Virus record (IMG/VR): IMGVR_UViG_3300032167_007466
Location: 45,290-109,289 of that record
Origin: a virus
Taxonomy: Duplodnaviria; Caudoviricetes
Direction: 5' to 3' (one strand)
DNA: 64,000 nucleotides
Position 1 is the stretch's first letter, and each line of letters starts with the position of its first letter. A program made the position numbers and the translations under genes. The notes beneath the pieces were generated by a model. It made no database searches. It had not been told where the DNA came from and saw nothing but the letters and a program-made list of their open reading frames with translations. Of the stretch, positions 5,176 to 54,886 are shown piece after piece.

Positions 5176-5733
5176 TTAATTTCCACCTGCAAACTCACCA
5201 TAATATTTTTGTCTCATTTCCTCTGCGAATTTTCCGGCTTGTTCTAATTCTTCATAAGAAAATTTTCCAAGTACAGTGTTTTTCTTATTTATCTGAAGCT
5301 GTACTATCCACATTTTCTCTGTGTTACTCCAAGAAACATTTCTGTAACCTGACTTATTATTACTGTTTCTACCCCTTCTGTTTTTAGAATTATTAGTATC
5401 TAAAACAATCCTTAAATTCTCTTTTCTGTTATCCAAGCAATTATTGTTTTTATGATCTACCGTCTTTCCGTTTGCTTCCATAATAAACTGATGTAAAAAT
5501 ATCGGTCTTGCTCTTTTTAGTTCAGGTATGTATTCACTTGCATAAGCATAATATTTACCCATACTTTTATTAAGTTTTGCATACCAAGTATAAGGAAAAT
5601 TTATCAATACTCTTTCCAAATCGTCTAAATCAATAACCGTCCATATACTTTCTGCATTTGTTCTGTTTAATTCAACCCTTACAATATTATTTACTTCATC
5701 AACAATATAATTGTTTCCCTTTTTCTTTGCCAT
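5176..5733 (-). CDS. HNH endonuclease with C-terminal AP2-like DNA-binding domain
   Basis: LHQFIM..VDHKNNNCLDNRKENLR (HNH), followed by NKSGYRNVSW..W..Q (AP2). Confidence 0.85.
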   Translation of the reverse strand: MAKKKGNNYIVDEVNNIVRVELNRTNAESIWTVIDLDDLERVLINFPYTWYAKLNKSMGKYYAYASEYIPELKRARPIFLHQFIMEANGKTVDHKNNNCLDNRKENLRIVLDTNNSKNRRGRNSNNKSGYRNVSWSNTEKMWIVQLQINKKNTVLGKFSYEELEQAGKFAEEMRQKYYGEFAGGN

Positions 5734-5768
5734 CCCAACTCTCCCTCTTTAATGCCCTTTCATCTGCT

Positions 5769-6128
5769 TTATTCTTCAACATCTAATAGTGTTACATTTC
5801 CGTTTTCAACAAGATAAATTTCATCAGCCGAAACATCCTCAATGTTGTATATCCTCTCAATAGGTAAGTATTCAAAATCAATCTTTTGAACACCACCGCT
5901 CCAAAAGATATAATCCGGATTGTGATAATACTGTTGTGCAACCAAATCAGCTTTTACAAAATCCTCAACTGTTCCAACATATTCAAAGGCTTTTATAATT
6001 TCATTCCAATCCTTGTCACAATATCCATGCATGCCCCTCTGTTCAAAATCGTGCTTATCTCCGTTGTATTCCTCTGTCGCATACATTCTGCCTTTGTTAT
6101 CCGTAAAAATTATCCTTCTGCGTGTCAT
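5769..6128 (-). CDS. Hypothetical protein
   Basis: GGAGG RBS. Confidence 0.7.
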   Translation of the reverse strand: MTRRRIIFTDNKGRMYATEEYNGDKHDFEQRGMHGYCDKDWNEIIKAFEYVGTVEDFVKADLVAQQYYHNPDYIFWSGGVQKIDFEYLPIERIYNIEDVSADEIYLVENGNVTLLDVEE

Positions 6129-6185
6129 ATTCGTTTCCTCCTAAAATCTATACTTAAACCCCTAATTCTATCGTGTTATTTCCGC

Positions 6186-6350
6186 TTACGATATATGCCT
6201 TCTGTGTACTAATGCACATTTGTTGCAGACACAAACCGTTTTTAATCCTTCGTTTTTTACCAAAGTTAAAACTTCATACTTTACACTTCTTGTTTCACCG
6301 CAAAAATGGCATTTTAAGTTTTTGTCTTTCCAATTCTCAATAAGTTTCAT
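6186..6350 (-). CDS. 54-aa zinc-finger protein (not in ORF track)
   Basis: GGAGG RBS; MKLIENWKDKNLKCHFCGE...CVCNKC. Confidence 0.65.
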   Translation of the reverse strand: MKLIENWKDKNLKCHFCGETRSVKYEVLTLVKNEGLKTVCVCNKCALVHRRHIS

Positions 6351-6359
6351 AATAGCCTC

Positions 6360-6692
6360 CTAACAAGCAGGACAACCGCATTTTCCGTATAACGCTCCAT
6401 GCTTCAAAAACATTCCTATATTCATAATTTCGTGTCTGTCAAGCTCTCTGCCCTTGTTTTCTCCAGCGATGTAGACAAAGCATCTTTTGACAATTTCCTT
6501 CGGCAATAATACCGCTTCTTTTGTGATAACCTTTATTCCAATACCCAAAGACAACATCACATCTCCGGCACCGCCATCAACTATATATCGTCTTATTTCC
6601 TCTGTTGCTCTGTTTAAATGATCTTGTGTTAAGGCTACACCAAAGAATAATTTTTCCGTCAAGTCTCTATATTCAAAGTAATTACAAGTCAT
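6360..6692 (-). CDS. Hypothetical protein
   Basis: GGAGG RBS before ATG 6692. Confidence 0.65.
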   Translation of the reverse strand: MTCNYFEYRDLTEKLFFGVALTQDHLNRATEEIRRYIVDGGAGDVMLSLGIGIKVITKEAVLLPKEIVKRCFVYIAGENKGRELDRHEIMNIGMFLKHGALYGKCGCPAC

Positions 6693-6721
6693 ATTAAATC
6701 CCTCCGTGTAAAGCAATTTGT

Positions 6722-6961
6722 TTAAAACTGTATTTCCGCTTCTTCTCTCCATCCAATAGGCTTATAACCCAACGCGGAAAGAAAACTCTGATAAATAGTG
6801 TTTAACCACTCCACTCTTGTTTTATCATTGCCTTTGATCCTGTCAAAAACATTCATATCAATAAAACGCTTCTGTTCTTCTTCCGTTAGCTTCTGCCAAG
6901 TCCACGACTTTTTAATAACATTCTGAAAGTAATTTTCCACCGTCATTGTGTGTTTTGCCAT
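6722..6961 (-). CDS. Hypothetical protein
   Basis: GGAGG RBS. Confidence 0.7.
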   Translation of the reverse strand: MAKHTMTVENYFQNVIKKSWTWQKLTEEEQKRFIDMNVFDRIKGNDKTRVEWLNTIYQSFLSALGYKPIGWREEAEIQF

Positions 6962-7130: not shown

Positions 7131-7325
7131 TCATCGTGTCTCGTCATTGAATACATCAATAAAATAATCCGCTTTTGGAAATTCTGAAAGGTATTTTCCA
7201 CCCTCTCCGTATTCCTTGTTATATTCACTAACCACCGCCCATGCCTTATCGTGATCTTCTGTTTCCAAAACAGTTTTTACTGTTCTTCCGCTTTTCTTTT
7301 CCCTTATATCAACACAATACAACAT
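7131..7325 (-). CDS. Hypothetical protein
   Basis: GAGG RBS before ATG 7325. Confidence 0.6.
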   Translation of the reverse strand: MLYCVDIREKKSGRTVKTVLETEDHDKAWAVVSEYNKEYGEGGKYLSEFPKADYFIDVFNDETR

Positions 7326-7329
7326 TGCT

Positions 7330-7857
7330 TTATTCCTCGCTTTCCGTTGCTTCAAACCTTGCACAAACAAAATTTTCCGCATCTAAAATGTATTCTGAAT
7401 TATTCCAATTTTCCTCTGCTACTGCTTCTGCTTCAATCCGGCTATCAGCTTCAATATAAACAACTTTTTCCAATGTTTCTGTTATCTTAACTGCATACTG
7501 TCTTGTTGTCTTTTCCTCTGTTTCATTTTCCATAAGCTGACATCCCTCTGTGTTAAACATACAATCATAAGAATTTTTATTATAGCATCCTTTGACACCA
7601 CAAGTTAAATCCTGATGATGATTTCCAAAAGTTATTCCGTTGTATTCCGTTTCTGCAATTTCCTTTTCGGTTTCCTCTTTGAAAACTCCACACTCTGCAT
7701 ATAACCCATATTTCTTGATGCAGTGCGGACAAACATATACATTCGCACTATCAAATCCGTCAAGAGATTTTGAGTTATAATCTCCATAATCGTTTGTTTC
7801 TCCGTTGTATAGCTGAAAATCATCAAATTCAATACCTTTGTAAAGTAATTTCTTCAT
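7330..7857 (-). CDS. Protein with C-terminal DpnD/PcfM-like domain
   Basis: YAVKITETLEKVVYIEADSRIEAE..W..SEYILDAENF. Confidence 0.65.
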   Translation of the reverse strand: MKKLLYKGIEFDDFQLYNGETNDYGDYNSKSLDGFDSANVYVCPHCIKKYGLYAECGVFKEETEKEIAETEYNGITFGNHHQDLTCGVKGCYNKNSYDCMFNTEGCQLMENETEEKTTRQYAVKITETLEKVVYIEADSRIEAEAVAEENWNNSEYILDAENFVCARFEATESEE

Positions 7858-9662: not shown

Positions 9663-10049
9663 TTAATCAATATAGCAGTTAATAACCGTTGCAAACTGTC
9701 TCATATTTTCCGCTATTGTCTGCCGTTCCTCTGCTCTTTTTTGATCTGATTCCCAACCGTCAACACCTTTAAAAAGTTTGTTGTATGTTTCTATTGGTTT
9801 TAAGTTGTGCAGATAATAAAGGCGATTTTCTGCAATAATAACCGCATCTATAATATCAGCAATACCACTACCCCAAAGTCCAGCACTTCTCAAAGATTTA
9901 AAATGTTCTATTTGTTTATTTGGCTGCAAATCCTTAAATTTGCAGATATTCCGCACAACTCCGCATGTTTTGTTGTTTTCCGTGTTTACAACTGTAATTG
10001 ATGTTTTACCTATTTTTATATGCTTGTTTTCAAGTTCTGAAATGTGCAT
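9663..10049 (-). CDS. Hypothetical protein
   Basis: GGAGG RBS. Confidence 0.65.
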   Translation of the reverse strand: MHISELENKHIKIGKTSITVVNTENNKTCGVVRNICKFKDLQPNKQIEHFKSLRSAGLWGSGIADIIDAVIIAENRLYYLHNLKPIETYNKLFKGVDGWESDQKRAEERQTIAENMRQFATVINCYID

Positions 10050-45293: not shown

Positions 45294-46388
45294 ATGGACG
45301 GTTTAGAAAAGTATATTTCGTGGGATGTTGATGAAGATAGTGGGTTTAGACGGCTTGTGCTTAATGAATTTGAGTCACCCATAACAGAAATGGAAAAGTT
45401 CAAAGAATATACAGGAGACAAGAAGGTTTGCCCAATATGTAAGCGCAATCTCCCTAAAAACACATATTTTTTCGCATCTGGAGGTAGCAAACGATACGGT
45501 GGACTTCATTCCTATTGTAAGGAGTGTGAAGGAACAAGGTTTGGTTGGGGCAGAAAGAAGAATGCTGAATTATATGCAGAAAACAAAAAATACTGTAGAA
45601 CTTGCGACAGAATATTACCCTTAAACGAATTATATTTCCAAAAAAGTGATGGTAGATGCAATACAAAAACAGGATTTTCAAGCAATTGCAAGGAGTGTCA
45701 AAATCACACATTTGGAACAAGAAGTATTAATGCGTTTAAAGATGATTTTGGTATTCGTGACGGATATAAAGTGTGTCATAATTGTATGTTGGAAATGCCA
45801 GACACCGATGATTATTTTTATCATAAGTCAGAAAGAGAATATGGACAAACTGTTTGCAAGTCATGTATCGCAAAAAAGGCAGGACGAGAACTTACTAACT
45901 CCAGACATTTAAACAAAAGTAAAGTTTATATGTTGAAGGAAGGCGAAAAATTTTGTACATCTTGTGGAGAAATATTTAGAGAAGAAGATATTTTAAGAAA
46001 TGGTGGTGTTTGTTTGTGTGACAAGTGTTATCGTGACAGAAACAAATATACATACGAAAAACGTCGTTCAAGAAAAATGAATTTAATATCCGATTTGACA
46101 CAAGAAGAATGGAATGACACTTTAAGATATTTTGAGCACAAATGTGCGTATTGTGGAATTGAAGAAAGTGAATGTTTTGGTAGACATCATAAATATTTAG
46201 CACAAGAACATATAGTCGCACTAACAAAAGGTGGTCATTTTACAAAAAATAATATTATACCGGTGTGTCCTGTTTGTAATTCTTCTAAAGGCAACAAATC
46301 GCTTGACGCCTTTTATAATAGATGTGATAGTTTCACAACAGAAATGTACAAAAAAGTTAAGGATTTTGTTAGTGCAAATTCCTGTTAA
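45294..46388 (+). CDS. Free-standing HNH endonuclease with repeated CxxC fingers
   Basis: CAYCG, QEHIV..GG, NIIPVC.VCNSSKG. Confidence 0.85.
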   Translation: MDGLEKYISWDVDEDSGFRRLVLNEFESPITEMEKFKEYTGDKKVCPICKRNLPKNTYFFASGGSKRYGGLHSYCKECEGTRFGWGRKKNAELYAENKKYCRTCDRILPLNELYFQKSDGRCNTKTGFSSNCKECQNHTFGTRSINAFKDDFGIRDGYKVCHNCMLEMPDTDDYFYHKSEREYGQTVCKSCIAKKAGRELTNSRHLNKSKVYMLKEGEKFCTSCGEIFREEDILRNGGVCLCDKCYRDRNKYTYEKRRSRKMNLISDLTQEEWNDTLRYFEHKCAYCGIEESECFGRHHKYLAQEHIVALTKGGHFTKNNIIPVCPVCNSSKGNKSLDAFYNRCDSFTTEMYKKVKDFVSANSC

Positions 46389-46467: not shown

Positions 46468-48603
46468 ATGGATGATTTTATAGTCAAACTTATTGCGAGG
46501 TTGGATTCAAGCAAAACTCCCGACGATTTAAGAAAGATTGAACAAGAGTTAAATAAAAAAAAGATAAATCTTCAAACTGTATTAGATACAGCTACTACTC
46601 AAAAAGAACTTAAAAACCTTGCAAAACAGATGCGAGAAGTCTTAAAATCTGAGGGTATTGATATTGATACAAGCACCATTTTAAGTTCATTAAAAAAAGC
46701 ACAAAAAGCAGCCGAAGATGCCAACAAAGCACAACAAGAAGGAACAAAAGAAAATATCCGTCTTCGCAAACAAGAGCTGGAGAATATTAGACAGAAAAAC
46801 AAAGAGTTGGCGGCTGAAACCGATACAATCAAAAAGACCACTGCAAATGCAAAAGCGAGACATCGAGAGGAAATGGAAGCCATTGATGCCGAAAGGGAGG
46901 CACTTGCTAAGAAAAGAAGGCTTGAAGATGAAAGAGCACGAAAATCTACTTCTCAAACAAAAATGGACAATATCAAGTTTTCTTTGGATAACGGGCATGG
47001 TGTTAGTGCATATCAAAACAGAATAAATTCTCTTATTGCTGACTTTGAAAGATACGGTGTTGCAACAAACAAAGCAGAAGCCGAAACAGCTCAGCTACAA
47101 CAGATTTTAAATAATATGAAAGGGATGTCTGGTGAGCAATTAATAGCCGAAGCAGACAGACTCGAACAAGAATTTAAAGCCGTCAAGGTTTCTGTTGACC
47201 AAGCAAAGTTGTCTTTTGATAAATTTAACCAACCCGTTTCAACAGAAAAGGCTTCGTCATTAATTCTGAGAATAAACACATTTTTAAGCAAGAACACTAA
47301 AATAACCGAAGAGGCAAAGGTTAAGTTACAGGAATATGTGCGCTTGCTTGAGGGTGGCGGTGTAACGCTTGGAAAGTGGAATGAGTATAACAATGAACTC
47401 AAAAAAGTAGAAACCTCAATGCGTGGTCTTGGTAGACTTGGTGCTAACTTAAGACAACAAATGAAACAGGCTGCCGAAAGCTTTACTCAATGGGTTTCTG
47501 TAAGTTCTGCAATTATGTTGGTTATCTCAAAAACCAAACAAGCAATGACTGAACTTAAAGAGGTTAACACACTTTTAACTGAGATTAGCAAGGCAAACGA
47601 AAACCTTTCCAAATCCCAATTAAAAGGCATTGGGAACAACGCGTTTGATGTTGCAAGTGATTACGGTAAAAAGGCAACTGATTATCTCGCTGGCGTTCAA
47701 GAAATGTCGAGAGCTGGTTATTATGATACAGCCGAAGAAATGGGTGAGCTTTCAGTAAAAGCTCAGGGTGCTGGCGATATGACGGCAGAAGTTGCAAACA
47801 AATTCATTGTGGCAACTGATAAAGCATATATGCTTGGCGGCTCGTTAAAAGATTTGACAAGCATTATGGATGGCGTAAACTACATAACCAATCATAATGC
47901 AATAAATATGACTGAACTCTCGGAAGGATTTTCAGTTGTAGCGTCTACGGCTTCATCTTTTGGTGTAGAAGCAAACGAATTAACTGCCGCACTTGCGACT
48001 ATGGGCTCAAGAACTCAACAGAGTGGTTCTGAGGTAGCCCGTGCATTCCGTGCAATTTTACTTAATATTAGGCAGGTTTCCGATGAAGAAGAAGGTATCG
48101 ATGCCGAGGGTCTTACAAAGTATGAGAATGCTTGTAATGCACTCAACGTTTCTCTTAAAGAAACCAAGAATGGTGTGCTCCAGACGAGAGATGCTATGGA
48201 TGTTTTGCACGACCTTTCTATTGAATATAATAAACTTGACGAGAACGATTTAAGGAGAACAAACCTTCTTAATGCGGTTGGTGGAAAACTTAGAGCGACA
48301 CAATTAGACGCGCTATTGCGTGGATGGTCTGAGTACGAAAAGATGCTCGGTCAGTTTGAAGATGGCACTGGTTCAATGGCAAAAGAAGCCGGAAAAACCG
48401 CAAATAGTTGGGAAGGCTCTATGAACAGGCTTTCCAACACTTGGACTGACACCATTGGAAATATTGCTGATTCTGATGGAGTAATTGGACTTATAAAATC
48501 CCTTGATTGGATTTTAGATAAAATAAACAATCTCACAGACGCATTGGGCTCACTTGGTTCAATAGGAACTATAGCAGGCATAACACTTAACAAAAAGCTG
48601 GGT
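46468..48603 (+). CDS. Tail tape measure protein, exon 1
   Basis: Helical protein with TP901-type TMP core (N...INM.EL, SG.EV.RA); ends KKLG at GGT|TAA. Confidence 0.9.
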
Positions 48604-49145
48604 TAATTATCGCATTTTAACTTACCGTAGGCTAAATGGTCTTGCGAGGCTCAGTGGTATATCTCGTGCCGGAATGAAAGATGTCTGGATAAAACACAAA
48701 GACAAATGGTTATTCATTTTAAGATATACCTATGTTGTAAAATAAAATAAATAAACTGTATGGTAAGGTACAGGCTGTTATATATCTAAGTGTCAACTAC
48801 TTAGATTTGGGATTTAGAAATAACCCAACAAGGACGGGAAAGGCTCACGTGACTCTATAAATTAAGCGTGATGACCCAATTCGCAGAGGGGCGTACTGCT
48901 TTTAGTAAGTGCCACTCCCATCGACTATTAGACAGACACGGATAAACGAAAGTGGATACGTGAAGATATAGTCAAGCCGCCAACCTTGAGTAAGTTGGTA
49001 AAAAGTTGTTCGTTTGTCGTATGCGAAAGCCGAAATACGATGAGTAACACATCTCTTTTATTAGTCTGTATGTGTGAACAGATAATAAAATAAAGTGTAT
49101 TCGTGCGATAATTATAATTTACAATATATAAAGGATTATAGTACG

Positions 49146-49331
49146 ATGATCAAAACAAACAATAAGACAGCAAAGCACTTATTGCTTGATAGTGGAAAAG
49201 CAAGCACAAATAACGAGTGTTTTGACAGAGCAAACGATGTTATTAAAATTAAAACTGATGTTGTTACAGATACGCAAGGGAATATAATAATAATTGAAAC
49301 ACCTCGACCAGAGTATTTATACACATTATAG
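49146..49331 (+). CDS. 61-aa intron-borne sense-strand peptide
   Basis: AAGGA RBS, ATG 49146; C-terminus similar to the convergent 53-aa peptide. Confidence 0.55.
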   Translation: MIKTNNKTAKHLLLDSGKASTNNECFDRANDVIKIKTDVVTDTQGNIIIIETPRPEYLYTL

Positions 49332-49332
49332 T

Positions 49333-49362
49333 AAAACAGGAGACAGTTATTTGTCTCCTGTT
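49333..49362. terminator. Hairpin between the convergent intron-borne genes
   Basis: AACAGGAGACA-gttatt-TGTCTCCTGTT; T-tract on the minus strand. Confidence 0.65.
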
Positions 49363-49508
49363 AGTATTTCAGAATTATTTTCCGATTCTTTGAGAGAAAA
49401 GGTTTCTACTAAATATTCTGGTTTTGGGGTTACGACATTAATCGGAACGCCCTTGCTATCTGTTAACTGAATATCTGTGTTCATTTTTATAGCATCATTT
49501 TCTGACAT
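49347..49508 (-). CDS. 53-aa peptide (not in ORF track)
   Basis: GGAGGTGA RBS; MSENDAIKMNTDIQLTDSKGVPINVVTPKPEYLVETF...; overlaps the end of the membrane gene. Confidence 0.7.
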   Translation of the reverse strand: MSENDAIKMNTDIQLTDSKGVPINVVTPKPEYLVETFSLKESENNSEILTGDK

Positions 49509-50073
49509 CTATCTCACCTCCCTGCACATAAATTTCAGTAACTTCCTGAACATTTTGAGTCGATTCGTAATAATCAATGGAAACATTAATAGCAAAAGAT
49601 AGGAATGTCACTATAAATGTTGCTGTAATCATTTTAATCAAACTACGATGTCTATCATTTTTCTTAATGTTGAGTTCTCTATTATGGATAGCATCGTTAA
49701 TAAAACGTTCAGCCATTTTTAATTCAAGAATTTCGTTAGCTTTATCTTTTTGATTTGTTTGAATTGAATTTAATACAGCAGTGTTTTGTGTGGCAATTGA
49801 TTTTATTGGAAATAACTGCGTTTTGTATCCAGAATATGTTCTAAAAAACATACCGATACAGATACAAAACATAATCGTAGATATTATGCAAAACACAAGA
49901 TAAACACCAGTATACCACAATAATTCGTAATTTTTAAATTGCGTCCATAACAATATTAATGCACTACCAATTATTGTTAAAAATGTAATACAAGTAGATA
50001 TTTTACCGTTTAGACGGTCATTGAATTCTATTTCTTTGTAATAGAGTTCTTTGTATTCCTGAAGTAAATCCAC
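49495..50073 (-). CDS. Three-TM membrane protein, defence-effector-like topology
   Basis: Amphipathic helix, TM hairpin, soluble helix, third TM; GGAGG RBS. Confidence 0.8.
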   Translation of the reverse strand: MDLLQEYKELYYKEIEFNDRLNGKISTCITFLTIIGSALILLWTQFKNYELLWYTGVYLVFCIISTIMFCICIGMFFRTYSGYKTQLFPIKSIATQNTAVLNSIQTNQKDKANEILELKMAERFINDAIHNRELNIKKNDRHRSLIKMITATFIVTFLSFAINVSIDYYESTQNVQEVTEIYVQGGEIDVRK

Positions 50074-50106
50074 AATATGTATCCTCCTTTGTGTTCTTTA
50101 GAAAAT

Positions 50107-50712
50107 TTACTTGTGCCCGTGTAAATCCCTATTCAATGCTTCGAGCCAACCGCCGGGTTTCCACTTAAATCCACACTTCTTGCAGACATTCCTATGATTG
50201 CCTGAACCAAGAAATCCTGTGGTTAATGTAAAACCTCTTGTTCCTGATGTGATATCTGTAGAGCCACATTGAGGGCAAGTAAGTTGTTTTTCGGTTGGTT
50301 TAGGTTGAGATTGAATTTGCTCTGCTTGTTTAGATTGGTTACGAAACTGAGACATTTTGAGTTCGTATTCTATAATGTCTTTTTCTTTGAGTTGTATCAT
50401 TGCCCGAAGAAAAGATTGGTCTGTTGATATGTCTGTAATAGTGAAATAATCGTCTATGGATAGTTTATCTAAAATAGAACTGTCATTTACAACGATACAA
50501 TGTTTTCCTACGGGTACTCCACAATTTGGACACTTGTCTGCTATTCCAGTGGTTTTTGTTCCACAGATACGACAAAGAATACATGTGTTACTTGACATTA
50601 GTTCATCTAAGCTCATGTTACTAACTGGATAAAAATTATTTTGAGAACATACGGGACACTTTTCTATGTTTTCATCTACTTGATAGCCACAAGTTTTACA
50701 ATACTTTTTCAT
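50107..50712 (-). CDS. Multi-zinc-ribbon protein
   Basis: Six CxxC pairs; AGGAG RBS before ATG 50712. Confidence 0.8.
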   Translation of the reverse strand: MKKYCKTCGYQVDENIEKCPVCSQNNFYPVSNMSLDELMSSNTCILCRICGTKTTGIADKCPNCGVPVGKHCIVVNDSSILDKLSIDDYFTITDISTDQSFLRAMIQLKEKDIIEYELKMSQFRNQSKQAEQIQSQPKPTEKQLTCPQCGSTDITSGTRGFTLTTGFLGSGNHRNVCKKCGFKWKPGGWLEALNRDLHGHK

Positions 50713-50759
50713 TAACTTCTCTCCTATAATATAGATAATCACACATTTTAACGATTTAT

Positions 50760-50788
50760 ATTATAGCACAAATTGTCATTGTTGTCAA
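50760..50788 (-). promoter_or_regulatory. Consensus sigmaA promoter for the intron cargo operon
   Basis: TTGACA (50788-50783), 17 nt, TGCTATAAT (50765-50760). Confidence 0.85.
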
Positions 50789-50791
50789 TTG

Positions 50792-53700
50792 CTTGCAAGG
50801 TTTGACAGCGAAGGCAAATTTGAATCTGTATTCAAACCAAAGCCAATAGAGATTAGTGAAAATGCCAACAACTTTTTTGATAAAACAAAAACATGGGACT
50901 TATCCGTATTAAAAACAAAGCAGGAGTTTGAAAATTTAAGTAAAGCAATTGGTGTTACTGACGATAGTTTAAAAAAGTTCCTCACAACAGAAGACGAAGC
51001 TTATAAAACAAAAGATTTGGCTACATACACCAAATACTTAAACGACCACAATAAAACGCTTGACCTTGCAACATTAAAAACGAAGGCTTGGGCTTTTGCT
51101 AAAAACATGGCTGTTAATGCGGCTATTGGTCTTGCTATGTACGGCGTCAATCTTTTAATCAAACAGTTTGATAAATGGATTGTAACTACGGAAGAATCGA
51201 GAGAAGCTTTAGCAAATCTTAAATCTGAATGTCAAACAATTGAGTCGGATTTAAAAGCAACAAATGATGAACTTGAAGTTACAAGACAACGAATGGATGA
51301 ACTTGAGGGCAAGGGAACTCTTACATTTACCGAAAAAGAAGAATATGATAATCTTGTAAAACAGAACAATGAACTTCAAAGAACAATTGACCTTCTTAAA
51401 TTAGAGCAAAAAGAAAAGAACAAAGAAAAAAATAAAACCTTTGTCGAGACGATGGAGAAGGATGTTGAACAGCATGGCGAATACCACGTAAGTGATTATG
51501 GTGGTAAGGTAAAAAAGGGTCATGGTGGGCGTGACATCGGTATGAATACCGATGAAAAAGCATATATCAATCAGCAATTCAAAGATTACCAAGACAATCT
51601 TGCTAAAATGGCTGAACTCGATGCCCAGTACAAAGACGACCTTGGCAATAAACAATACCAAAAAGACAGAAAACGACTTGAAGACCAAAATAAAAAGATT
51701 TCTGAATATCTTAGGGGTAAGAACACCGAATTTACTACGGATGCGGATGGTATTGAATATATTGAAAATCCATCAAACGACGATGAAGAAAAAGTAAATA
51801 AATGGCTTGACTTCATTAATGATTTTCAGGACAAAATGGCTATTGCTATGGGCGGTGACAACGCCGAGACAAATGCCTTTAATCGAGTTGTAGATAATTG
51901 GCAATTTGATGAAGTTGTTCAAGGTTTACAAGACTTAGGAAAAGAAGGCAAAGTTACTGCCGATATGCTTAACGACCCTAAATATGACGAGTTCATTCAA
52001 AAACTTGTATATTTAGGAATAATTGATAGCGCTGACAACTTAGATGAAATTGCCCTTGCTTTTAATAATGTCGGAACAGAAGCCGAAAACTCAGATGAAA
52101 AAGTCAATAAAATGACGGTTTCATTAGAAGACCTCACATCTGCATCAGAAGGCGTCTCAACACTTCAAAAAGCATTCAAAGAACTATCAGACGAAGGCTA
52201 CATAACAACTGAATCAATTTCTAAAATACAAGAAGCAACAGGTTTAGCAGGTGAAGAATGGAGTTCTTATCAGTCAAAACTTCTTAATGCTAAGGCTGGT
52301 ACTGCTGAGTTTAATCAAGTAATGACTGATTTGACATATAAAATACTTGATAACACATTTGCAGGTAAAGGCTTAACCGAAGTCACCGAAGAGCAGATTG
52401 CAGCAGTATTAAGAGAGAATGGTGTTACAAATGCAAGTGCAGTAGCACATAACTATGCAACACGAGCTAAAATCCATGCTAAATTAGCAACATTTGATTT
52501 TTCGAATGCCACAAAAGAAGAAATCGAAACCTTATATGAAGAAATGCGTACTATGGGCTTGACAGAAGGGGCTATTCAATCGCTGTCATCTGCTTATGCT
52601 TCTGCACAGACTGCAATGTTAGAGGCTGTTTCATCTGGTGCGATAGCAAGATTAGGTGTGTTGCAATCTGAGTTAGAAGGAGTTAAAAGTTTAGCAGAAG
52701 CCTATGCATTATTAGCTGGTTCTGGAGGTTATGATTCCAATAATGATGGCACAGTTGATTATGTAGGTTCCGAAAAAAGCCGAATGTCAGGAGATACTAA
52801 AACTAAGTACTTGGCAGACCGAGAAAAGGTTTTGGCTTATGGGCGAGCGGTCGAGGCTTTGGAGAACATAAAAAGTATTAATATTGCAGGAGCAGATGTT
52901 GTTCCTAAATACTCAGGTGGCAAATCAGGTTCAAGCGGTGGTGGTGGTTCCAAGAAAAATGACGCTCTTGACAACTACCTCAAAGATGCCGAAAATCGTT
53001 ATAAAGTACACCAAGACGAAACCAAATATATAAAAGAACTTCAATATGCCCACGACAATCTCACAAAAAATGATAAAGAACGACTTGATATTATCGGAAA
53101 AATCAACGAAGCATATCGTGACCTTGCAGATAACCGCATTAAAGACCTTGAACATCAAATTGATTTGACCAAGGAACTCAAAGGCGAAAATGCCGATGTG
53201 ACTGCTCAGTACAATGAAATCCAGAGAGTTGCACACGAAGAGGCAGAAAGACTTCGTGCTATGGGTTACGATGACAACTCAAATGAAATACAAGACCTGC
53301 AAAAGACTTGGTGGGATGCTCAAGATAAAAAACTTGATTGGCGTTGGAATAATTCTACAAATTGGATAGAAGAAAGAAAAGCCAAAGGAGATTGGAGTTT
53401 ATTTGGAGACTCGGAAGTCCAAGCTTGGGAAAGAGTTGTTAAGTGGTTGGAGCAAGACTACCCTAATGCTCTTGATAAAATTAAGGAAGCAAAAAATAAT
53501 CTTGTAGATGCCCGTTGGGAACATTCTAATAATTGGATAGATGAGCGAAACACATATAACGACTGGGCATTGTTCAATGATTCAGAAGTAGATGCTTGGG
53601 AACGTGTTGTTAAATGGCTTAAAAAAGATTATCCAGACGATATTAACAAAATCAAAGAGGCAGAACAAAATCTATTTGAAGCCAGAAAAGAACAGTTTGA

Positions 53701-54886
53701 TAAGGCAAACGATTTCGGCTCTTCCATACTTGATTCTCAAAAAACTCTATTGCAATCTTATTATGATGTTACAAATTCTATTGCAGAGGCTCAACACGAG
53801 ATTAACAAAGAACTTGAAACGTCTAAGACGATGTACGAATGGCTTGATAAAGACACCAGACAGTTATTATTTAATCAAACAGATTATAACACTTTGTCTG
53901 AAGAACTTTACGATATTCAATATAAAGCAGATAAACTTAGAAGACAGTATGAGAGAGACCTGAATAATTCTACGCTTGAAACTGTTGAAAGTATAACATC
54001 TCAGTATGAAATGCAATACGAAACTCTTATGAAGAGTTATGAGATTGCAAAAGCAGACCTTGAGATTGCCAAGAAGAAACAAAAACTTAACAATGTTCTT
54101 AATGAGCGTAATGTTAGAATGTTTATCAACGGTCAATGGCAATGGGTAGCAAACACAGAGGACGTTATAAATGCTAAGGCAGAGTTGGCTGATGCTGAGT
54201 ATGCTAAACAGGTTGAAGAAGCCGGATTAACACAGCAAGAATCTATCAACAATCTTACAAAGCAACAAGATGAGCTATCGGTTGTTATTAAGAAGTTTGA
54301 AAACGGAGTAATTACATTAGGCGAAGCAGTAGATGCTGCAAGGAATGCTATTGGAAATTTACCAAATGCATTAAATTCGATGTATAATAACGCTTCTTCT
54401 GGTGGAACTTCTAAATCTTCTAATAGGGTTTCTCGTTTACATCCATCTGTAGTTGGGGGTAGTTCTTATTCTACTAAAATCCCAAATGTTCAAGGTAATT
54501 ATACAGTAAATGGAGTGCAATATAGAAACAAATATGCAGAGGGAACTCGTTATACATCGGGCGGAATGACATTGATGGGAGAAGAAGGCTTTGAGGCTTA
54601 CATAAGTTCAAATGGTCATCTTATACCTATTAATCAACCTACTATCGGCAATATTCCAAGTGGCGGTATTGTCTTTAACACAGAACAAATGAGTAATTTA
54701 AGGTCGTTATGGGATATGAGTAATTTCAATATCAATCCAGACAGAAGTTATATAAATACACAACCACAGCAGATAAATCAGACCCACGATAATAGAATTA
54801 TTATCAATGGTATGACTGTTGATAGCGGAAGTTCAGACGGACAGGCACTTATCAGTGCACTACGCAGATATGTAGGAAATCATTAA
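50792..54886 (+). CDS. Tail tape measure protein, exon 2
   Basis: Long helical ORF without an RBS; YAEGT..GEEG.E C-terminal motif. Spliced product 2076 aa. Confidence 0.88.
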   Translation, partial: LARFDSEGKFESVFKPKPIEISENANNFFDKTKTWDLSVLKTKQEFENLSKAIGVTDDSLKKFLTTEDEAYKTKDLATYTKYLNDHNKTLDLATLKTKAWAFAKNMAVNAAIGLAMYGVNLLIKQFDKWIVTTEESREALANLKSECQTIESDLKATNDELEVTRQRMDELEGKGTLTFTEKEEYDNLVKQNNELQRTIDLLKLEQKEKNKEKNKTFVETMEKDVEQHGEYHVSDYGGKVKKGHGGRDIGMNTDEKAYINQQFKDYQDNLAKMAELDAQYKDDLGNKQYQKDRKRLEDQNKKISEYLRGKNTEFTTDADGIEYIENPSNDDEEKVNKWLDFINDFQDKMAIAMGGDNAETNAFNRVVDNWQFDEVVQGLQDLGKEGKVTADMLNDPKYDEFIQKLVYLGIIDSADNLDEIALAFNNVGTEAENSDEKVNKMTVSLEDLTSASEGVSTLQKAFKELSDEGYITTESISKIQEATGLAGEEWSSYQSKLLNAKAGTAEFNQVMTDLTYKILDNTFAGKGLTEVTEEQIAAVLRENGVTNASAVAHNYATRAKIHAKLATFDFSNATKEEIETLYEEMRTMGLTEGAIQSLSSAYASAQTAMLEAVSSGAIARLGVLQSELEGVKSLAEAYALLAGSGGYDSNNDGTVDYVGSEKSRMSGDTKTKYLADREKVLAYGRAVEALENIKSINIAGADVVPKYSGGKSGSSGGGGSKKNDALDNYLKDAENRYKVHQDETKYIKELQYAHDNLTKNDKERLDIIGKINEAYRDLADNRIKDLEHQIDLTKELKGENADVTAQYNEIQRVAHEEAERLRAMGYDDNSNEIQDLQKTWWDAQDKKLDWRWNNSTNWIEERKAKGDWSLFGDSEVQAWERVVKWLEQDYPNALDKIKEAKNNLVDARWEHSNNWIDERNTYNDWALFNDSEVDAWERVVKWLKKDYPDDINKIKEAEQNLFEARKEQFDKANDFGSSILDSQKTLLQSYYDVTNSIAEAQHEINKELETSKTMYEWLDKDTRQLLFNQTDYNTLSEELYDIQYKADKLRRQYERDLNNSTLETVESITSQYEMQYETLMKSYEIAKADLEIAKKKQKLNNVLNERNVRMFINGQWQWVANTEDVINAKAELADAEYAKQVEEAGLTQQESINNLTKQQDELSVVIKKFENGVITLGEAVDAARNAIGNLPNALNSMYNNASSGGTSKSSNRVSRLHPSVVGGSSYSTKIPNVQGNYTVNGVQYRNKYAEGTRYTSGGMTLMGEEGFEAYISSNGHLIPINQPTIGNIPSGGIVFNTEQMSNLRSLWDMSNFNINPDRSYINTQPQQINQTHDNRIIINGMTVDSGSSDGQALISALRRYVGNH

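Follow-up and report, generated by a model that had tools for sequence, protein, structure and literature searches.

The genes described here lie in a 64,000-nt stretch of viral DNA (the window) that is part of a 109-kb IMG/VR provirus record. The tape-measure gene of this stretch is read as two exons on the plus strand. Exon 1 (46468–48603) comprises 712 codons and belongs to an open reading frame (46468–48606) that matches PhageMin_Tail (E = 3e-19) and stops at GGT TAA. Exon 2 (50792–54886) lies in a frame open from 50735 and has no ribosome site of its own. The approximately 2.2 kb between the tape-measure open reading frames contain no long plus-strand open reading frame and were assigned by manual reading to a group I intron (48604–50791, plus strand), with its core at the 5′ end, extending to approximately 49046. 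The cargo of the intron (approximately 49047–50756) occupies both strands and consists of the small gene pepB, its small counterpart pepA, a membrane-protein gene (the TM gene) and a zinc-ribbon protein gene.

Three of the cargo genes form a cassette on the minus strand, antisense to the tape-measure gene. The first is the zinc-ribbon gene (50107–50742, 211 amino acids, phrog_2546), which at homologue loci is a common but non-obligatory neighbour of the TM gene. It is followed by the TM gene (49495–50073), encoding 192 amino acids with three hydrophobic helices from a GTG start behind AAGGAGGA, and by pepA (49347–49508; ATG at 49508, stop at 49347), encoding an acidic protein of 53 amino acids. 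The first-pass annotation had placed this cassette under sigma-A, and a 12/12 sigma-A promoter with a TG extension (TTGACA, 17 nt, TG-TATAAT) is indeed predicted at 50760–50788 on the minus strand, overlapping the 3′ end of the intron. On the plus strand, pepB (49146–49331; ATG at 49146, stop at 49331) encodes 61 amino acids behind the ribosome site AAAGGA (49130–49135). The two small genes converge on a hairpin with a perfect 11-bp stem and a 6-nt loop (49335–49362), as had been noted earlier from the same sequence. In a related locus, L002, three paralogues of the zinc-ribbon C-terminal domain (phrog_2546 type) are scattered round the module (2163–2399, 7242–7658 and 9666–9968).

The elements of the intron were identified as follows. 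The end of exon 1, GCUGGGU (48597–48603), pairs with GCUCAGU (48649–48655) in P1, with a U·G pair at the splice site; UUGCGAG (48642–48648), just 5′ of the guide, pairs with CUUGCAA (50792–50798) in P10; and the R and S elements of P7 are GACUAU (48923–48928) and AUAGUC (48968–48973). A cut after G50791 joins GGT to CTT in frame. Because neither the window nor five related loci matched an intron family in Rfam, at the gathering threshold or at E ≤ 10, the group I assignment rests on the manually read P1, P10 and P7 together with this in-frame junction. The spliced junction was not seen in public reads or contigs, whose coverage of the stretch is incomplete.

Contigs from two public runs, X18 and X19, both probably of DNA, share the core to 49046 and the 3′ end (50757–50789) and carry other sequence between them, from which we infer that pepB, pepA, the TM gene and the zinc-ribbon gene are swappable cargo. 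The last approximately 33 nt of the intron (50757–50791) hold the perfect antisense sigma-A promoter, and this stretch recurs in X19 with other flanks, its cargo-side loose end reading, on the minus strand, as a GGAGG ribosome site; the intron 3′ end may therefore be a built-in cargo promoter. In retaining the core and the far 3′ splice site while internal genes are swapped, the element resembles cargo-carrying group I introns and IStrons in phage tape-measure genes. It differs from these in that the module also lies beside antirepressor, HU-like and chromosomal genes and is not intron-bound. Unlike the open reading frames of homing endonuclease introns, pepB has no LAGLIDADG, GIY-YIG, HNH or His-Cys box domain, and is also found outside introns. 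No endonuclease is present in the tape-measure intron itself; a stand-alone HNH endonuclease gene (45294–46388), rich in CxxC pairs, is located 80 nt upstream of the tape-measure gene. Nearly the same TM/pepA/pepB cargo lies between tape-measure halves in the close relatives L038, L040, L041 and L042, and the approximately 435-nt non-coding stretch beside pepB (4288–4722 in L038) shows no alignment to the intron core of the window and no Rfam match. On this comparison, the same cargo may reside in unrelated intervening sequences. Elsewhere in the window, an Rfam drum RNA (24698–24801, 53 bits) lies beside a 59-nt tRNA-model match of reduced length (24856–24914).

The TM protein has hydrophobic helices at about residues 27–47, 54–77 and 148–168, plus a helical bundle, and its AF2 model (pLDDT of 82) comprises helices 3–48, 53–80, 90–103 and 106–176 followed by a disordered tail. 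The first protein search with this sequence returned 153 homologues at E ≤ 0.001, none with a more specific name than hypothetical protein of Lachnospiraceae or Clostridiales, and a full profile search returned 487 cluster representatives at E ≤ 0.001. The gene is rare: among 301 species genomes sampled from the bacterial family to which G001, the source of L010, belongs, 3 have it. The TM protein, pepA and pepB belong to no family in Pfam, NCBIfam or PADLOC (2023) and only to families of unknown function in PHROGs, and no defence, toxin or holin family matched the TM protein. A Foldseek comparison of the TM protein with the PDB gave only BAR-like helical noise, and a PDB sequence search gave nothing useful. 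No usable match was obtained from an Atlas search with pepA, and the phage collection gave no match in blastn or tblastn. When viral contigs were scanned with pepA or the TM protein as single sequences, no relatives were found; the relatives in viral contigs came from profile scans, which succeeded. Recurrent matches to 8xMP stayed below threshold, and the literature yielded nothing on the 8xMP family.

As modelled, the TM protein would resemble the SLATT and PycTM proteins of CBASS and Pycsar, with an N-terminal helix running into a hydrophobic helix pair and then a long helix. An Atlas search with the TM protein placed at rank 12 (score of 0.87) a cluster in which 78% carry PF18967, and one of 63 remote TM relatives has a SLATT_1 match that falls below threshold (E = 8.6e-4). 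The window protein itself has no PF18181-type or PF18967 match at E ≤ 1. A precomputed PF18967 flag on two TM homologues (P0067 and P0069) was not reproduced, neither having a Pfam match at E ≤ 1. In contrast to CBASS and Pycsar, no cyclase or nucleotide-sensing partner is located near the TM gene of the window, and the link to PycTM or SLATT appears faint.

The TM gene and pepA are tightly coupled, as the first-pass annotation had held. The pepA start and the TM stop share a 14-nt overlap, and the Shine–Dalgarno sequence GGAGGTGA (49514–49521, minus strand) stands 6 nt before the pepA ATG, within the last codons of the TM gene; a Gly-Gly-Glu is conserved in the TM tail because the Shine–Dalgarno sequence sits inside these codons. 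The same GGAGGTGA is found ahead of the pepA ATG in 12 split loci and in two of three fused loci, the third having GGCGGTGA. A pepA-like open reading frame comes next after the TM gene in every locus with downstream sequence, and in six homologue clusters TM and pepA form a single polypeptide of 233–320 amino acids. Because two of the three fused loci retain the internal GGAGGTGA-ATG, free pepA may still be made there, so that the fusions need not mean that pepA acts in cis. The pair is adjacent, co-transcribed and translationally coupled through the overlap and the conserved ribosome site, as is characteristic of Type II-like toxin–antitoxin genes. A prfB-like +1 frameshift joining TM and pepA was considered and rejected; the Shine–Dalgarno-like site is too distant from the stop, and an ordinary start suffices. 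In L009, a DDE transposase of an insertion sequence (5688–6806) stands between pepA and a TM gene cut off at residue 178, with pepA and pepB both intact, and in L030 the module is flanked by insertion sequences.

Structure prediction with the peptide, which had been suggested as a check, lends weak support to binding of pepA to the TM protein. The fold of the two together gave an ipSAE of 0.49 (best of three controls, 0.00), at least 93% contact agreement between runs and a partner pLDDT of at least 64; the mark applied to such folds is attained by 58 of 80 solved complexes and 2 of 110 mismatched pairs, and at values up to 0.60 it is attained by only 7 of those 80 complexes, together with both passing mismatches. 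The AF2 model of a natural TM–pepA fusion contains a two-residue β-bridge, and the pepA part is not confidently placed or docked. Topology poses a further difficulty. A by-eye count of Lys and Arg under the positive-inside rule, made on the sequence and the AF2 model, puts the N-terminus and the helical bundle of the TM protein in the cytoplasm and the C-terminus outside, so that a fused pepA would be on the wrong side. Both pepA and pepB are without a signal sequence, some pepB forms seem to be cytoplasmic and membrane-anchored, and the pepB of L029 appears tail-anchored with its motif in the cytoplasm. As predicted, the topology conflicts with the cytoplasmic-looking peptides, which is a problem for the pepA–TM model and counts against it.

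The minus-strand 53-residue and plus-strand 61-residue proteins had been described as paralogues at these same coordinates, and a BLASTP comparison bears this out (16/30 identities, 23/30 positives, E = 5e-9). The motifs quoted for them were also right, except that the plus-strand protein does not end at PEYL but continues for three residues beyond it, ending in YTL. The two genes are the sole copies of the motif in the 109-kb record, and the match between them is not a chance one, because the same arrangement recurs in approximately 15 other lineages. An invertible segment at pepA/pepB was ruled out, as there are neither long inverted repeats nor a recombinase, and so was a long RNA duplex between the two genes, the best being only 22 nt at 77% complementarity. 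One arm of the hairpin stem codes for the final residues of pepA. On the minus strand the stem is followed by TTTT, which would make it a terminator for the TM–pepA operon; the T-run on the plus strand is weak. A TM-strand hairpin with a T-run lies between pepA and pepB in 10 of the 15 loci folded, and is usually weaker the other way.

A TM gene, an overlapping pepA and a convergent pepB-like gene occur together in approximately 15 other lineages of gut Clostridia, down to 34% TM identity, which answers the earlier suggestion to look for pepB-like peptides beside TM homologues. The loci are prophage or metagenome contigs, in some of which the module lies within split tape-measure genes and in others elsewhere. 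For detection of pepB, an HMM of the shared core was run over six-frame open reading frames of all fetched loci. It recovered a convergent paralogue directly after pepA in the window and in its close relatives L038/40/41, L039 and L042, in which pepB likewise lies between tape-measure halves; in L043–46, L011, L009, L010, L016/17/22, L030 and L023; and in the fused loci L047 and L048. In distant clades (34–51% TM identity), inspection revealed the same layout with clade-specific motifs in L005/6, L008/14, L013/28, L020/21/33 and L029, and only weakly in L007/32. No pepB was recognised in L024/25/27, L012 or L015, and that of L002 is a truncated, degenerate-looking remnant. In L008 and L014 (TM protein 34% identical), the module lies antisense between tape-measure pieces at 9670–8743, 6685–6422 and 3261–2656, and a further interruption of approximately 2 kb is present within the N-terminal part of the tape-measure gene.

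The length of pepB ranges from 35 to 93 amino acids among orthologues because its N-terminus is variable; the conserved core corresponds to the last approximately 33 residues of the window protein, and the distant forms have amphipathic or hydrophobic C-terminal tails. Both small genes are, on Nei–Gojobori counts (p from one-sided binomial tests), under purifying selection. For pepB, dN/dS is 0.05–0.26 among close relatives, with 0.05 between L038 and L042 (8.5 synonymous and 2.5 nonsynonymous changes, p = 2e-5), 0.08 between L039 and L042 (p = 5e-5) and 0.22 between the window and L038 (p = 0.009). For pepA, the value between the window and L038 is 0.06 (p = 3e-8), and divergence is faster in pepB than in pepA. 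In most loci a ribosome site and a start codon stand ahead of pepB. The first-pass annotation had allowed that the plus-strand frame might be an unconserved, decayed duplicate; conservation, start signals and purifying selection all speak against this. That pepB is a decaying, functionless inverted copy of pepA is accordingly hardly credible, even though it diverges the faster of the two, varies from 35 to 93 residues and is degenerate or missing in a few loci, since approximately 15 lineages have kept it with its frame open and its start signals in place, at a dN/dS well below 1. Comparative sequence data thus establish pepA and pepB as two real small-protein genes of one conserved module.

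The paralogues also change in concert. Within a locus, pepA and pepB differ at synonymous sites with pS of 0.42–0.87, near saturation, and pN is mostly 0.25–0.33. Their motifs match within a locus and differ between clades: in the window both proteins carry TP[KR]PEYL, in L013 PKS[DE] and then E..DL.KKE, and in L029 DPPN[DE]L.YE.F. In a matrix of pepA-by-pepB scores, same-locus pairs sum to 842 against 455 expected, a value attained by 0 of 20,000 permutations. Such co-variation fits a shared, co-evolving binding site or a pepA–pepB heterodimer, as judged from the alignments; it could instead have come from old gene conversion or repeated duplication.

The position of pepB connects it with phage transcription. 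The first-pass annotation had pepB ride on the tape-measure transcript, and pepB does lie on the sense strand within the group I intron of the tape-measure gene, so the tape-measure pre-mRNA must contain it. In loci with gene tables, no unit other than TM–pepA is antisense to the run of phage genes, and pepB comes just after a gene of its own orientation, namely a tape-measure gene (L038–L042), an HU-like gene (L017 and L030) or an antirepressor gene (L047). Two contigs from RNA-type libraries of two studies span the hairpin (49265–49602, identical to the window, and 49241–49492, with three differences); because DNA may be present in the libraries, they are a weak hint of transcription across the junction.

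The closest precedent is the Tab/anti-Tab system of Pseudomonas phage JBD26 (Patel et al. 2024, PMC10884400), which the first-pass annotation had quoted correctly and whose gene layout is a close match. The gene for Tab runs opposite to the late genes and has its own promoter, from which the prophage expresses it; anti-Tab, encoded by a small adjacent gene that converges on it and belongs to the plus-strand late operon, binds Tab and spares the lytic cycle of the phage itself (PMC10884400). The window cassette likewise appears, from its sequence, to be set opposite late genes under its own 12/12 sigma-A promoter, antisense to the tape-measure gene, the late gene at this locus and also the target of Tab. 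With its small size, convergent orientation and position on the late-gene strand, pepB could be the counterpart of anti-Tab, a likeness of gene geometry. The window differs in that its effector candidate is a membrane protein of three helices accompanied by an additional, co-translated peptide, and in that the candidate antidote is a paralogue of this peptide, neither of which has been described for Tab.

Other systems share parts of this organization. Like toxin–antitoxin and abortive-infection pairs whose toxin is a membrane protein, the module has adjacent, translationally coupled genes for a small acidic protein and a membrane protein; it is sporadic and mobile, occupies accessory positions of prophages and is interrupted by insertion sequences in some loci. 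In contrast to such pairs, the peptide comes after the membrane protein and can be fused to it, and the module includes a third member, an opposite-strand paralogue; no toxin or antitoxin family in Pfam, NCBIfam or PADLOC matched TM or pepA. By analogy with holin and antiholin (lambda S105/S107), the membrane protein might be set by a near-copy of its own part, with lytic-cycle timing. An antiholin is a variant of the holin itself and is located in the lysis cassette. In the window, however, the paralogy is between two soluble peptides and does not involve the TM protein, the TM gene lies antisense to the late genes behind a sigma-A promoter, and its neighbours are the zinc-ribbon gene and tape-measure exons, with no endolysin adjacent.

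The reading that we tentatively favour combines a membrane effector expressed in lysogeny, a coupled peptide partner and a lytic-cycle paralogue that competes with or replaces this partner. The TM/pepA cassette would be expressed by the prophage during lysogeny from its own sigma-A promoter, and pepA, predicted to bind the TM protein, would set its activity. From lytic-cycle transcripts, with timing deduced from gene order alone, pepB would be made with the same putative binding core, a β-hairpin followed by P-E-h-h-x-[DE]-x-[FW], and would compete with or substitute for pepA. With pepB lytic and pepA lysogenic, the TM protein would behave differently in the phage's own lytic cycle and in the lysogen; pepB could switch the effector off, as an antidote, or on. 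More doubtful is a paralogue antidote, or 'microprotein' switch, in which an opposite-strand mimic of the co-translated peptide, made in the lytic cycle and co-evolving with its twin, is carried as cargo of a self-splicing intron. Transcription of the tape-measure gene would then both deliver the mimic pepB and cross the effector cassette in antisense.

Both peptides might instead be constitutive subunits of one membrane complex, for example a pseudo-symmetric hairpin heterodimer on the TM protein, with no temporal switch and with a convergent layout that merely allows a shared terminator. The paralogues co-vary as partners in a homodimer-derived heterodimer would, and pepB has its own ribosome site and might have its own promoter, a possible extended −10 (TGCGATAAT, 49104–49112) having been read manually ahead of it. 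Co-expressed genes, however, normally share one operon; here the opposite strand is kept in approximately 15 lineages and several contexts, with pepB always downstream of co-oriented phage genes, and we regard this explanation as unlikely. Rather less probable still is that both peptides present a short linear motif to a host protein, the TM protein serving only to anchor or co-localise pepA and pepB titrating the host target. The only near-universal feature is indeed [PS]-E-h-h-x-[DE]-x-[FW] after a variable hairpin, and the predictions support TM–pepA binding weakly and show no docking in the fused model. Yet a conserved host target would fix the motif, which instead varies by clade along with the TM protein, and pepA is tied to the TM gene at every locus through overlap or fusion.

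It is very unlikely that pepB acts chiefly at the RNA level, its transcription antisense into pepA and the TM gene silencing the cassette and its coding being secondary. Transcription of the tape-measure gene must traverse the entire cassette in the antisense direction, the poor plus-strand T-run of the hairpin should let plus-strand transcripts continue past it, and contigs from RNA libraries span the hairpin. Against this, an excess of synonymous changes in pepB clearly indicates selection on the protein, and its frame, ribosome site and protein motif are retained despite DNA divergence. Antisense interference may well occur in addition to a protein role of pepB.

Proteins of 35–60 residues are rarely annotated, and their function can seldom be inferred. 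Comparative data alone indicate here that two small proteins are real and evolve in concert beside an uncharacterised membrane-protein family. The distinctive feature, among cassettes with a sense-strand partner, appears to be that the partner is a co-evolving paralogue of the peptide co-translated with the membrane protein. As mobile cargo, the module is carried both in group I introns of an essential tail gene and in ordinary accessory-gene positions. One copy, L010, belongs to Lachnospiraceae bacterium MD308. The name points to an isolate in culture, and if there is one, the proposed model could be tested at the bench. Should the proposed switch be true, it would provide a second, unrelated example of the Tab/anti-Tab logic and a new principle, self-immunity through a mimic of the effector's own partner peptide.
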